Notes: generated by a model from the sequence alone, not told the origin. Shown: positions 9,096 through 39,594, numbered from the whole stretch's first letter. The stretch: 56,342 nt of DNA, filler included, from Sluysia triapertura (GCA_046118255.1; 4 parts of 4 records of this genome joined end to end with filler, not necessarily neighbours in it), one strand, 5' to 3'. Made by a program: numbers and translations.

Positions 9096-12000
9096 TTTTG
9101 AAATATGTATATTTAAAGGTAACAAAATTGCTTATTTCGAAATTCGAAATGCGACATTATTCTAACATTCTATTCTAATGTGAAATATTTTGTTTAAATT
9201 CAAAATTTAAATAACATGTTACTGTTAACAATTTCTATAGTATGACAAGTTTTATTAATTTGAGATACAATTTCTTTTAATTGATAATTGATTATTTTTT
9301 GTAATATTTTATTTGACTGTTGCAACATTCACTAAAATTCAAAACCATAATAAACAAATAGTATATTTACTATAATAAGTAGAAAATTGTGATCCATTTT
9401 ACATAATTGGAAAATTGTTATAAACATTAATTGTCTCTATGAATATACATATTATATTGAAATTATATGATATTTGATGTGTTTGATGATATTTGACATA
9501 CCATACATTGAAATTAGGTGATTTTACATGTATAACGCATTATACAAAGTTTACTGATTTTATGCAGTCAAAATTATTGATTTAAAAGCAGAATATATTA
9601 CGATTTTGAGGCATTCGCATATTTTGGAATTATTTTCACATATATTCTATCGCCACTATAAATTTATCGAGTAGTGCCAATGTGCAAAATTTTTTCAAGT
9701 TTTCATAAAAATAAAAAAATTGGTCCATGCCATAATTTGAGGAGCAGCACTCCTGGTAAAACTTCAAAGATGAAGTAGATTCGGAGGACTTATGATTATT
9801 AATTAAACTTAAATTTAGATCTGATTTTACTAGTTTTCTTTCTTTTAAGGATTTAATATTAGTGCTTTTATGATTGTTCCTGTGGAACTTTGAATGATAG
9901 GCTACTACTTTCGAAATGAGTTCGGTTCTGCCTAACTCGAGTATGCTAGTATGCGGAATAACGTTATAAATTATAAATGTTTCATTATGATTCTTAATAT
10001 TCGTAAGTATATTTGCTTCGAAGCTTTCATAGAAAATTTTAATTTTAAGTACATTACCAAATGATCCGATTGTTTGACTATTAATAAACTTGTATTCGTA
10101 TAGTTTATCGAGAGATAAATAAAATATTTTAGACCTATAATCACGAATTATAATAATAAAATTAACAAGATAAAATTTTATTAAAAAACAAGATTTTTCA
10201 ATTATAAGAATTAATTTATTTATGGTTGGTACTTTAATTGTCTGTCTTTTTTTCGAAAATTCAGTTGGTTTTTTCACAGAATTTTGTGTTGCACCTCATC
10301 GATCCGGTTAAACATTTTTTGAACTAAATAAAAATTACATAAATATATAAAATTAATACTAACAAGACAATTCTTACAACTAAACGCGTTATTCCTCTTT
10401 ACATTTGTAGTTGCTTCATTGCATCATCGTTATCGAATGGTTGTACTTTAAAGAAACATGATCCAGTCTGACGCCTTGTGGTGGTTAACATTACTTGTCG
10501 ATAAAGTTTGATATTCACAATCAATATATAATGTCGTTGGTCTTTCAATATCACTGTCATCGTGCACAAAATCTTTATCTTTTTTATTTATCAGGATTGA
10601 ATTTTCATCATCTTGTCGGAGCTCATTATAATCAATTTCTAAAATTTCTTCAGATTCGAACGAATTTTCGTCAATAGGAACATAATCTCTTTTATTTATT
10701 TTAATAGGATCTTCTTTAGTATCAAACAAATCAGGGAGATAATACTGCAACGACTTGGATAATTCTAACCTTTTTAGAGACTGAACAATTGCTTCAATTT
10801 CATCTCGTGCAAAATTTATGTTATTTGTGTCAACTTTATTAAACTTTTTATTAGTATCAACTGGAAAATAGAAATTATATGAATTTCGACTCTTACATAC
10901 AATTATCGGTGTAATATTATCCGATCTAATTAGAATTTCTAATATGTTGTATTGGGATATCCAGTATGAAGTATTAGTCCGTTTGGTAAAATAGTTGGTT
11001 TATCTTCTGATTTCGGTAACATTAGTGAGCCTGTTTGAATTAATACTTCTTTTTTGAAACTGTCGTTATTTGATAAACAATTAATAAAAATAGATTTGGA
11101 AGCTACATCTGGTAGGTCTTTGATATTGTATCGCGATACACTTTCTCGTGAGTACGTACTATTTGATTGTGATTCTTTGTATTTCATTGTAAGTCGATTA
11201 CTTGTTTTAAAATGAGTGTCGCTCGTAATAAGATAAACTTTATATGACTCTAAAACATCTTCTTTGATTGTTCTTTTTAAGTCGTTATCAATAAAACTAT
11301 CATAACTTGTTAATCGTCGAATCCATAAGTTATCATTTGATAAATAAGCCAATCTTACATCGTTATCTAGTACTGATAATACGTTTTCATTTGTTACATA
11401 AGTAGTGCTCATAAGATTTTTAGTGATATTCAATTGCATTACAAAAATTGTTTATTAATTGATTGCTAAATGCATAAATTGTAATTATTGTTATGACTAA
11501 ATTTTTTAAGTTGACTTGAAAACTCATTGAAAATTGTGAAACAATTTTTGCTGTCCACTATTGTTCGCTCAATCAGAGTATTTTGTGGATTTAATCAGTA
11601 ATGTATACTCTCATTGAGTAATGACTAAAATTAATTTGTAAAATTGAGTACATACCGTCAGCCGAAATCAGTGCTGTCATTAAAATGACATTTTTTAAAC
11701 AGGGTATCAGCAATGATGACGGCAGCAACCAACTTAATGAAATGACTCAAAATTTATTAAAAATAATTTGCACCATTAATAGCAATAATAATAATACTAA
11801 TAATAATAACAATAATAATAATAATAGTAATAATGTTATTATTATTATTATTAATAATTGAAATTAAATGCATAAACATCTTTGAACTTTCTACACGATC
11901 ATTTCTGTTATGTTCTTAATCTTCTACATATATAAAATTAAAAGGCATAAAACTAATGAAATACTGTGAAGGAACAACGATAACAAGGTATACTAGTCTC

Positions 12001-12679
12001 GGTTATCGCTGTTGCTTCAAATTTAAAATAATGAACTCTTTAAGGCTTTATTAAGTTTATTTATAAAGGTAAAAGAAATGACTTGAGTTATACTTAAGAC
12101 GAAGAGTGTTAGAATAAATTACTAAAATTTGTTAAGATTTGATCCTTGAATATGATAGTTTGAGATGGTTATTGAAAGGTTGAAGTTATTTTAGTTTTAA
12201 ATGACGATTACAAAATAAATCTTAACGTATTTATATTGTTATTAAAAATAAATGTTGATGCTAAATATGTATAGATGAAGTGAGTTTAGCTTGGTGTAGT
12301 TGATTAAAGATTTTAATGTAAATGATTTATGTTTCTGAGTTACTTGTTAATGTTGTTGAATGGTGTTATTGTGTTTATGATTTGTATATAATATACTGTG
12401 ATTGTGGCTTGTTTGTTAGAATATCTTATGAGTGAATGTTGTGAATTATTCGAGATTAAATGTCGAAGTTTGTTGTACTGTGGATGTATTAGTGGAATTG
12501 TTGACGTGTGTGAGTTAATGAGATGATATAAATATCGAGTGTTGTTTATGGTGATTGTGTTGGTATAGTTCGATAGTTATAAGGGTTTGTTTTGAAAATT
12601 ATATTTCGGTGAAGTTTAACTTATGAATATTGGATGTGATGTTTTGATAAATTTTAAGTCGTGAGTGTTGGTCACCACA
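9096..12679 (-). mobile_element. Cargo element E1 (TGTGGTGACCAAC start; 3' end uncertain)
   Basis: 5' terminus at 12679 on the minus strand, A/C-rich module, AAT/ATT palindrome, hairpins 11568-11722, cargo gene; putative end TCAAAA at 9096 with only a 3/5 TSD match. Confidence 0.6.
9260..11439 (-). pseudogene. Degenerate nuclear hormone receptor-like cargo gene of E1
   Basis: Splicing a 40-nt intron (10324-10363) gives CKNCL/FKKCLTGSM (second C4 finger); downstream FYENLKKFCTLALLDKFIV fits the LBD signature FAKxLPxFxxLxxxD(Q/K)xxL; second 40-nt intron 10861-10900; several in-frame stops. Confidence 0.6.
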
Positions 12680-36994: not shown

Positions 36995-39594
36995 TGTGGT
37001 GGTCAACCTATTACTTTTAACAAATCTTATTAAAATTTTTCTTTTCAACATAATAAAAACCGCATTTACTTTCAAATTCACATTTTTAAATTCATTATAA
37101 ACACTTTCATACATAGTTCAATACTAACATAACCAAAATCATATTTTTTAACATCACACAATTACTTTTTAGAATGTACCAAAACATAGTCTATAATCTA
37201 TCTTATTCGCATCCACTAAACTACTCTCTTTCCATATATTAGCAAATCACAATCTTCTAACATCCAAACATTACCTTCAGTCAAAACATCAATGTATATT
37301 TAAAAATCCACATAAAACCTTTATATAATTTCAAAATACTTAAAATACTTTCATCACCCAAACTTATCTTCAGTTAAAACTATTAAACAACATTTAAAAC
37401 TTCATTTAAAACATTTTACCTAGTATTGTATGACATTAGAGTCACAATTACACCTTAAAATTTTATCCAAAATATGTAACATTAATCTGCAACATCACAA
37501 GTTCACCATTCTTTAATTCCCATAACTTCAAATATGTTTAGAAATAATAAAAGAATTAGAAAGAAAGTTTGTGATAAAATTATTGAAAGGATTTATGCTG
37601 TTTATAATGATAATAATAATAATGACATTGTTATTATTATTATCATTTTTATTTTCATTATTTTTAATTTTTAATTTTAATTTTATCATCTAACCAGTAA
37701 TTACCACTATCAGTGGTGACACTATTGGTTACTTTGTATAAATTCTTGTCACCATTGATAGTGGCTTGTCTGTCAATCTTGTTCTCTTCTAACGCTATTA
37801 TTGTACCTGATCATTATTTTTATCACTCTGGTTGAACAACCAATGAAGACAATCTCTCATTTGCTGTTGTGTAATTATGTATTGATAGTATTGCAATATG
37901 ATTGGTACTAAAAATAGTGATACTATAATTACCACAATTACAATTTGGTTGTTAATTTAAAAATTAAATTAACACTGTAGGAAATGTTTTATTTTTAAAT
38001 CGTAAAAGCACAATTTTTGAGTTATTTATGATCACATAGTTAAAGACAATAGAATATCTAGATTTAATGATAGACAAACATTTCGTAAAGCGTGTATCAA
38101 CTGTATATCATAGTTCTCAAACAATCAAACCTATAAGTATGAATATAATGACTTCAACAACTGAGTTGGAAATTATCACTCAACCAAATGAAAGTATTTT
38201 ATTAAATCTAAATAACAATAATCAAGAACATGATGGTCAGGAACGACGGAAATGCTTATACATTAGTATTGCAGAAAAAATTGATGAAATCCTCATTTAT
38301 TATATTTATTTACATGTTCTCTATCCTAGGCTCGATGTTAATATTTCAAGAGAATTTACTAATCCAAATCTAGAGCAGACTATTACTCCTATAGATTGCT
38401 ATGAAAATATATTCATTGTAATTAGACGTGAAGTTCGTGAATTGAGAACTCCACCACCAGTTTCGACGATAAAACGAGATTAATCATTGACAATTATATC
38501 AGTATATTCTCTCAATGTTATCTGATTTCAAAAGTGAAAAGATCAAGTGAAAATTTAAAAGAGCATGCCTTTTATGAATTTACGATGCCAATTCGTATAG
38601 AATTACTTGATAATAATATAGATAAATTTGAGCTGATTCAAGGGATGCTGCGTTTTCGAATAGGAGTAGATATAATTAGTCATGTTGATATCATTGATCT
38701 GAATCAAAGTGTAAAGTTCGCATCAATAGTTACTGGTAAAGTTTATGCTTACTCTAGTCCATGTAAAAGAATGCTTATGACCGATATACAAGTTAAAGAA
38801 AATATTATATTGAACATAAATATTATCAAACCTTTTAAGATAAGAACAATGAATACAAGCCTAAACTTAATTTCGAATAAAGCTTTACGAATTAACGCAT
38901 CCCAGTTAAGTATCAAGTACAAAGACCAATGTAAAAATGACTTGGAAATACGTTCTGTATACTGATCCTTACAAACATCGTCATTTTAGCTATACGTTCA
39001 AGAATTTAATATACCTTCCATCGGTTACTGTCAATTCAATTTCTCACAACTGTTTCAATAATTCATCAAGTTCAAATTAATGTATAACAACAGCACTTTG
39101 CCCATCTACTAGTGACATAAATGGCAGATGCACAACATTTGGAGTTAATTGTGTATATGTGCACGCGGTTAATTAGTTATTGAATCATAGATTCGAATAT
39201 ACATCTCACACAGATCATCAATCCAGACTTAGGAATTTACTAAAATGCATTGGAATACCAACCTCAGAAATATAAGACAAGATTGGTTATACTAGTTATG
39301 ATAAAGTAATTTTTCTTTATTGTTACACCAAAGGCAATCTAACTTCTATTTTCTTTTTAGATAGCAAAGCGTGGCTAATCGAGAGGAACGTATACAGAAC
39401 GATCTTCCTAAATGTTCAAATTTTTAAATTTTGTATGTTGAATAAAATGTTTTGTGTTTACAGATTTTCGTTCATTATTTATAAACTTTAAATTCATTCT
39501 TCTTTTTAGATTCGATGAATATTAACTTAGGAATAAAAGTTTTAAAAATTAAGATAAAAAATGTTATAAAAACGCAATTTTATATAAATCAAAA
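36995..39594 (+). mobile_element. Cargo element E6, 5-bp TSD CTATT
   Basis: CTATT|TGTGGTGGTCAACC ... AATTTTATATAAATCAAAA|CTATT; 5' module and hairpin 37704-37764 homologous to E4/E5. Confidence 0.8.
38067..39426 (+). pseudogene. Cargo gene of E6, interrupted, with Unkempt-type CCCH finger near the C-terminus
   Basis: ORFs of 138 and 143 aa, then ITTALCPSTSDINGRCTTFGVNCVYVHAVN*LLN at 39084-39185; putative intron from 39306 to 39360 or 39364. Confidence 0.65.

Follow-up and report, generated by a model that had tools for sequence, protein, structure and literature searches.

Conservation of the attachment (att) sites at the ends of long terminal repeats (LTRs) reaches about 7 bp; elements of the CsRN1 clade of Gypsy retrotransposons start with TGTGGYG and carry the 3' motif MSYYAMA, and the general LTR end reads YNYAACA (PMC3601003). 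In the same source, listed R regions span 10-150 bp, and the mean length of CsRN1 LTRs is 330 bp. In cestode flatworms, elements of this clade rank among the most abundant LTR elements (PMC12471100). The present work concerns E4, E5 and E6, members of an apparently undescribed family of gene-carrying elements with three, perhaps four, copies in a 56,342-nucleotide stretch of DNA from Sluysia triapertura (GCA_046118255.1), hereafter the window. These elements are bounded by att-like ends and hold pieces of host genes, and we tentatively read them as solo LTRs of unusual length.

Several described systems share part of this organization. Solo LTRs of CsRN1-like Gypsy elements resemble the present units in their TG...CA ends, imperfect terminal complementarity of about 7-8 bp, short target-site duplication (TSD), unpaired state and start sequence, which agrees in five of six cases (PMC3601003); the units in the window differ in measuring 2-2.8 kb rather than about 330 bp, in holding host coding pieces and in having no parent element in sight, and placement in the clade needs a pol gene. 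LTR-mediated retrocopies, including maize Bs1, likewise hold incomplete host pieces, possibly from more than one gene, between fixed element sequence and can be re-amplified, but they are flanked on both sides by retrotransposon, whereas here the cargo lies inside one TG...CA unit (PMC5131818). Among the TRIMs (terminal-repeat retrotransposons in miniature), Cassandra, Helenus and Ajax hold foreign sequence within the LTR and leave solo LTRs with 4-5 bp TSDs; theirs are fixed tRNA or 5S pieces in units of 0.3-1.3 kb, in contrast to the variable, protein-coding cargo found here behind a CCAAT-type block (PMC10886601). The ta-TRIM solo LTRs of the flatworm Echinococcus give internal transcripts and host-gene fusions, but they are short and non-coding, and the gene they are fused with is not inside the LTR but downstream of it (PMC4558846). 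Planarian Burro/GYPSM1 and plant Ogre are giant Gypsy elements, with host-like domains in Burro and multi-kilobase LTRs in Ogre, and represent a candidate kind of partner; the extra domains of Burro sit in internal open reading frames (ORFs) (PMC6431247).

On the side of DNA transposons, Ginger1 and Ginger2-TDD share the TGT start, a 4-5 bp TSD, tolerance of introns and gypsy-type integrase chemistry, but their terminal inverted repeats (TIRs) and integrase ORF are not present in the elements of the window (PMC2836005). Pack-MULE and Pack-TIR elements are also non-autonomous units with host fragments and chimeras, differing in being defined by TIR arms (PMC8277862). The literature searched gave no account of variable protein-coding cargo in a single LTR-ended unit, nor of this family; Repbase and Dfam lay outside that search, and a library entry may already exist.

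E4 as a complete insertion

E4 occupies positions 20577..22554 on the minus strand and runs over 1978 bp from TGTGGTG to CTCAACA. It lies between two copies of a 5-bp TSD, at 20572..20576 beside its right end and at 22555..22559 beside its left end. On the uninterrupted copy of the host repeat at about 27 kb, the two flanks overlap by exactly 5 bp; the same test on the copies at 7 kb and 14 kb was not interpretable. The empty site that a first-pass annotation of this DNA had reported exists in the window, and five public contigs of run X1 pass directly from 20571 to 22555, where 5 letters could be assigned to either flank. The flank overlap and the empty-site contigs therefore prove E4 to be an insertion with TG...CA ends, a 5-bp TSD and empty sites, and for this element the integrase-type mode of insertion proposed earlier for the whole set is supported. 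The contigs of run X1 amount to 735 million letters and hold 0.45 of the words sampled from the stretch; the run is possibly the source sample, so its contigs do not constitute independent support.

At the left end of E4, 51 contigs cease to match at 22554 and continue into unrelated flanks (median 255 letters, agreement 0.43); the element ends sharply at this base and has many sites of insertion. The 3' end of E4 does not appear among the loose-end matches listed, which were 6 of 511. Both TGTGGYG and the general YNYAACA are matched by the ends of E4, and its 5-bp TSD falls within the 4-6 bp range of solo LTRs and, among Ginger-type elements, whose TSDs are 4 bp long except for 5 bp in TDD-4/5, fits TDD only. 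Two further classes were considered and rejected. Helitrons produce no TSD and have TC...CTRR ends, and for E4 they are ruled out by the 5-bp TSD and TG...CA ends. Processed pseudogenes made by LINEs (long interspersed nuclear elements) carry an A-tail, a variable longer TSD and a ragged 5' end; they are ruled out by the sharp 5' end in 51 contigs and by the end of E4, where no A-tail is found.

Family architecture of E4, E5 and E6

Judged by their sequences, E4, E5 and E6 are one family, with a common 5' end, hairpin/CCAAT block and 3' block. E4 and E5 align in five blocks of 66-75% identity, with 74% over the first 287 nt, and profiles built from these two elements alone recover E6 at the 5' end (E 9e-06), in the hairpin block (3e-08) and in the 3' core (0.087).

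The layout is most easily followed in E4, read on the minus strand. A C/A-rich, G-poor 5' module, possibly U3-like (21750..22554; skew 0.64 over 600 nt; high summed contig depth), is followed by an AAT/ATT palindrome (21630..21673) and by two inverted repeats with a CCAAT box at 21407, which together form a predicted promoter block (21395..21590), which folds on either strand with z -3.5 to -4.9 and is conserved in E5 and E6. A variable slot of 207 nt (21192..21398) separates the CCAAT block from the finger exon. Summed contig depth, which is not equal to copy number and gives rough contrasts, marks this slot as low-copy, with about 62 at 21233-21368 against 900-3900 on either side, and two contigs skip or replace it, joining 21188/21191 to 21399. 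Behind the slot stands a stop-broken CCCH finger of Unkempt type (20957..21055), matched by Pfam zf-CCCH_UNK at E 6e-07, under the curated cut-off, and weakly by PDB 5elh (E 0.2); a search with the finger region among longer proteins (63 candidates) gave no homologue, which is weak evidence. The unit closes with a fixed 3' block (20577..20855), 71% identical to E5 over 270 nt, containing a putative GT-AG intron (donor 20836, 52-56 nt) through which the reading frame also passes.

E5 (23876..26699, plus strand) has its palindrome, hairpin and CCAAT box (24933) at 24668..24945. It lacks its last ~12 bp, its TSD and about 16 bp of target: homology to E4 ceases at E4 position 1966 of 1978, and the loss of target emerges from comparison with the 7-kb repeat copy. 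One deletion likely removed both the right end and the TSD. E6 (36995..39594, plus strand) carries the palindrome, hairpin and CCAAT box (37840) at 37604..37850. The CTATT duplication attributed to it holds in so far as an exact 5-bp pair is found at 36990-36994 and 39595-39599 (chance expectation 0.17 per 4.6 kb), but the end itself reads CAAAA and is plausible rather than proven. This end lies 288 nt past the shared donor, compared with 259 in E4. The whole-block DNA match between the E6 3' end and E4 is marginal, with 77 of 2090 background windows scoring equally, and that alignment would set E4's end about 50 bp before 39594.

The order of module, AAT/ATT palindrome and hairpin, as first described, holds in E1, E4, E5 and E6, and the CCAAT box stands at the homologous place in the latter three, which also have in common the fixed 3' block that the first-pass annotation had overlooked. 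AATAAA, which had been offered as evidence, is uninformative here, with 3.7 occurrences per kb per strand. Fold z-scores of the hairpins range from -3.5 to -6.1 on both strands of E4-E6, and the strand preference is inconsistent (the opposite strand in E4, the cargo strand in E5 and E6). Two-sided change affects 4 of 21 paired positions in four copies, too few to separate RNA structure from paired DNA sites. Metagenome matches to the hairpin (3 loci, 41-54% GC) had no blastn similarity to the elements and were taken as chance. A donor-like AAA|GTAATT (candidate splice positions 20836, 26449 and 39306), an inner motif and, 52-59 nt farther on, an AG are also common to E4, E5 and E6 and suggest a putative intron.

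The shared promoter-like block and finger might recall segmental duplicates of an ordinary gene family. This is scarcely credible: for E4 it is refuted by the TSD, the empty sites and the 51 unrelated flanks that meet the element at one base.

The six starts and the standing of E1, E2 and E3

The first-pass annotation had treated six insertions, E1 to E6, as a single family with the start TGTGG(T/A)G(G/A) and a CAACA terminus. All six starts are present at their positions (6/6). The window contains the motif 8 times, whereas 200 block shuffles gave it 1.74 times on average and at most 7 times; the two additional occurrences lie at 10477 (opposite strand, within an E1 reading frame) and 29328. 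Behind all six starts, the first 200 nt have a C-over-G skew of 0.50-0.69, where the window median is 0.09 (600-nt windows), and five of the six match the CsRN1-clade TGTGGYG. The grouping into one family is not supported beyond E4, E5 and E6, with E1 as a probable member and E2 and E3 left unassigned, and the CAACA terminus is not confirmed for the set, since besides E4 only one of the two candidate ends of E2 has it exactly.

E1 (9400..12679, minus strand) is probably a distant relative of E4-E6. It has the start, the module, a palindrome at 11764-11866, a weak hairpin at 11650-11745 (fold z -0.9) and broken frames. The E4+E5 profiles match it weakly (E 0.16 and 0.55), though where matches would be expected, and its score of 63 compares with a maximum of 60 in 5475 windows. 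The search for a right end gave no credible candidate, and the broken frames have no cargo match in Pfam or NCBIfam, three of them being blank or at chance level in PDB.

E2 (17082..19299, plus strand) is an insertion that shares the first 9 bases, with its right end either at 19153 (4-bp TTAA) or at 19299 (5 bp with 1 mismatch). The TTAA pair proposed earlier for 19153 is indeed present, but 0.11 such pairs are expected by chance and empty-site joins resume the repeat at 19299-19309. The E4+E5 profiles found no match in E2, another profile matching at E 0.57. E3 (19482..19700, plus strand) consists of the start motif and a C-rich 200 nt only; its start matches the E4+E5 profile at E 0.33, and no end, hairpin or 3' block was found, the suspected 3' block having been looked for. 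Neither E2 nor E3 shows blastn similarity to E4-E6 at the ends or hairpin, and they have little in common with them beyond the first ~10 bases.

Host-derived cargo

By sequence matching, the identified cargo is made up of partial or broken host-gene pieces, and the KIDINS220-like, proteasome and CCCH-finger matches support the earlier proposal of a host origin. E5 holds a KIDINS220-like piece with a SAM-like domain and linker at 26131..26439 (plus strand; PF23307 E 1.9e-11), 44% identical to P0003 over 97 aa (E 1e-13, the best of 4 matches). The match stops at 26439, where the block shared with E4 starts, and no A-tail is present at this 3' junction of the cargo. The SAM-like frame had also been considered as a bacterial integrase core (Atlas 0.80-0.81), a candidate rejected on its chance-range score and the strong Pfam and phmmer matches to KIDINS220. 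An upstream cargo frame with one stop (25022..25969, plus strand) shows a weak colinear match to P0007 1005-1083 (E 0.11) and is blank or at chance level in PDB, and the 222-aa frame of E5 found no homologue among longer proteins (988 candidates; weak evidence) and none in Atlas.

In E2, a single frame at 18181..18504 (plus strand) matches proteasome subunit beta type-1 (PDB E 5.4e-08, residues 88-143 and 171-217), and the one weak NCBIfam match in 11 proteins is this proteasome lead. A ~115-bp tandem duplication lies directly behind the piece, at 18516-18724. A second E2 frame is blank or at chance level in PDB, and a suspected splice donor at 18463 was dropped because the proteasome match continues across the site. 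In vertebrates, introns interrupt this part of the proteasome beta-1 gene, so that the piece would be consistent with an origin from mRNA. E6 carries a CCCH finger remnant at 39090..39173 (plus strand; tblastx to E4 E 4e-07; Pfam E 0.021), with the putative intron donor behind it at 39306; weak matches to a DNA primase motif (38250-38366) and a TRAPP-subunit motif (38543-38626), both on the plus strand, are chance-level leads (PDB E 0.81 and 0.79). The cargo is variable, as had been claimed, in that the host pieces differ, but only partly so, as a CCCH finger occurs in both E4 and E6. Summed depth over the cargo of E5 and E2 is 92-452, where single contigs reach 10-20; this roughly suggests that these chimeras are multicopy.

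These data also bear on a mixed origin, in which an old element would have spread a CCCH-finger gene with its promoter, jingwei-like retrocopies would later have landed in single copies, and E1-E3 would be unrelated LTRs with similar ends. Such an origin would agree with the lack of hairpin and 3' block in E2 and E3, with proven ends in E4 only and with the ~2 start motifs expected by chance. It is nevertheless improbable, since the E5 junction lacks the A-tail, the depth of the E5 and E2 cargo roughly indicates many copies, and the fixed 3' block follows immediately on the host piece.

Class and mode of movement

As the first-pass annotation had stated, no family of reverse transcriptase (RT), integrase or transposase is visible: Pfam found none in 68 ORFs, picked from 105 ORFs of at least 62 aa together with four shorter ones, or in 21 read-through frames. 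No inverted repeat extends past base 8 in 24 comparisons of four candidate right ends with six starts (all p at least 0.12), and a degenerate long TIR was rejected on the same comparisons. Ginger as defined and Pack-TIR elements, one of the two models first put forward, are therefore excluded, with a TIR of at most ~8 bp against about 40-300 bp in Ginger, whose defining range is 40-270 bp and whose listed TIRs measure 44-297 bp (PMC2836005). Self-blastn of the six elements found no terminal direct repeats, and two-LTR elements (TRIMs, large retrotransposon derivatives or LARDs, and Bs1-type) are thereby excluded; since there is no internal direct repeat, each element represents one LTR-like unit and not two. 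The other original model, that of large solo LTRs, gains from the fit of the ends to published LTR motifs (PMC3601003 Table 3), but no paired LTRs are seen in the window.

The best explanation, to which we give slightly less than even confidence, is that E4, E5 and E6 are solo LTRs of a gypsy-type retrotransposon, with captured host RNA inside a transcribed part of great length. The LTR would then likely hold a whole chimeric gene between predicted promoter and 3' end. We favor this reading because of the TSD and empty sites of E4, its sharp 5' end with unrelated flanks and the ~8-bp terminal complementarity, together with the att-motif matches, the lack of an internal direct repeat and the host piece abutting the fixed 3' block; the slot of E4, low-copy between high-copy flanks and skipped by two contigs, points in the same direction.

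The units as directly seen, with att-like ends, the E4 TSD and empty sites, fixed 5' and 3' blocks and differing host pieces between them, might be divided as follows. The C/A-rich module, palindromes and CCAAT box would correspond to U3, closed by the promoter block, while the cargo, CCCH finger and putative intron would form a very long R region, leaving a short U5. Reverse transcription switches template within R. A jump of RT within this region could detour over a co-packaged host mRNA, which would leave a host piece with the fixed leader on one side and the fixed 3' block on the other, copied to both LTRs; LTR-LTR recombination would then leave a solo unit with its TSD. Individual steps have precedents, as fragments of mRNA are known to be captured in animals by template switching (PMC5131818), foreign pieces occur inside LTRs and solo LTRs carry TSDs (PMC10886601), solo LTRs of flatworms make internal transcripts (PMC4558846) and Ogre LTRs measure 1.9-6.5 kb (PMC6431247). 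The retained intron would imply packaging of unspliced RNA, and, more speculatively, its donor might suppress a 5' poly(A) site in the manner of foamy viruses, in which polyadenylation at the 5' LTR is kept down by a splice donor lying upstream of the poly(A) signal (PMC3694450).

Several observations weigh against the solo-LTR explanation. Neither the window nor the contig data show, in connection with these ends, a full-length element, primer-binding site (PBS), polypurine tract (PPT), gag or pol, and the 51 flanks at the 5' end of E4 have no common PPT (agreement 0.43), an absence expected only if solo copies dominate. The sizes required, about 0.8-1.7 kb for R and 2-2.8 kb for the LTR, compare with the published 10-150 bp and 330 bp. 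The CsRN1 motif MSYYAMA matches none of the four candidate right ends, and one right end in six, that of E4, is proven. In the literature consulted, cestode Gypsy elements have mostly 4-bp TSDs, those of Taenia TRIMs being 5 bp. That the cargo has lost host introns is a supposition, the window's own major facilitator superfamily (MFS) gene being intronless. Finally, the putative intron lies on the sense strand and is retained in 3/3 copies.

Intron retention would be accounted for if the solo LTR were read in the opposite sense, with the genomic RNA on the other strand, the G/T-rich module as a long U5 and the chimeric gene as an antisense passenger never spliced from packaged RNA. The general att consensus is self-complementary, and the motifs leave orientation unfixed; the other end of E4 fits the consensus, and GT-rich stretches mark U5 (PMC3601003). 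We nonetheless consider this orientation quite unlikely, as capture by RT would be expected to set cargo in the sense of the genomic RNA (a consequence drawn from PMC5131818), the hairpin z-scores give no consistent strand and the exact CsRN1 5' motif stands on the cargo strand.

The intron, kept in all three copies, would also be at home in a non-autonomous DNA cassette without TIRs or LTR pairs, moved by cut-and-paste through a gypsy- or Ginger-like integrase acting on ~8-bp att ends, with cargo entering via gap repair or through retrocopies inserted into the slot. The data show no PBS, PPT or partner, gypsy-type integrases move intron-bearing, TGT-ended Ginger elements and TDD gives 5-bp TSDs (PMC2836005), and Pack-TIRs are known in animals (PMC8277862). 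This mode of movement is unlikely, though far from negligible, given that all 24 end comparisons lack a TIR past base 8, that the ORFs and read-through frames searched yielded no transposase and that the two ends differ strongly in composition. We consider it similarly doubtful that the elements are a new class of integrase-moved promoter-to-end cassettes with 8-bp att bounds and many copies, lacking both TIRs and paired LTRs, which would swap host pieces into a fixed slot before an Unkempt-type finger and thereby shuffle exons across the genome.

Host repeats and neighbouring sequences

The window has a GC content of ~25% and appears to consist of four contigs joined by spacers. Runs of N at 15983-16082, 31197-31296 and 42269-42368, each with a central TTAATTAATTAA, are likely contig spacers, and genes on either side of one are not necessarily neighbours. 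E1 lies on contig 1, E2-E5 on contig 2 and E6 on contig 3, so the clustering of E1-E6 does not represent a single locus.

The repeat that hosts E4 and E5 has an uninterrupted copy at 7064..8044 (plus strand) and further copies at 14094-14480 and 26702-27372; around E4 it covers 20369-20576 and 22555-22861, and around E5 23558-23875 and 26702-27372. It is C-rich and very high-copy, with summed depth up to 350,000. E4 and E5 occupy different sites in it in the same orientation, which may reflect target preference or mere abundance, and one contig, which links 22554 with 20558, points to a possible third insertion near E4's site in another copy. A second high-copy repeat (~16800-17081 and 19300-19480) hosts E2, and one contig, joining 17056 to 23875, places an E5-type start in another copy of it. 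A broken frame at ~31900-32400 (minus strand), resembling a Gypsy gag N-terminus to the eye, has no Pfam match and no end in common with E1-E6; it was rejected as a partner, as no TGTGG(T/A)G end lies nearby and Pfam gave no match.

The neighbouring host genes are animal-like in a Pfam-type search of the 68 ORFs. They include an intronless MFS transporter gene (210-1583, minus strand), a PDE1 N-terminus (41753-41962, plus strand), thioredoxin-like domains, which we take to be of UGGT type (49724-53600, minus strand), and a LITAF-like domain just upstream of E6 (36241-36652, minus strand), all ordinary host genes. Other repeats comprise a dispersed repeat in two copies of 69% identity (16309-16607 and 27508-27790), a tandem array with a unit of ~20 bp (30126-30278) and a tRNA-cored repeat with TGT...ACA ends in two copies of 83% identity (30884-31010 and 32828-32954). 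The sole Rfam match is a tRNA-like piece.

Implications

Since E4 supplies both ends and the TSD length, the nature of these units is directly testable in the assembly. Such units would escape both TIR finders and LTR finders that depend on two repeats, and would be taken for orphan genes in gene prediction. Should they not be LTRs, DNA with ends of only ~8 bp would be moved by an integrase, which bears on the relationship between Ginger-type DNA transposons and LTR elements. In known gene capture by LTR elements, two LTRs enclose the host piece; Pack elements, for their part, require TIRs. If E4, E5 and E6 are solo LTRs, capture would take place inside the LTR, and each leftover of recombination would be a ready chimeric gene with its own promoter, a host fragment and an RNA-binding finger, offering a possible route to new chimeric genes.

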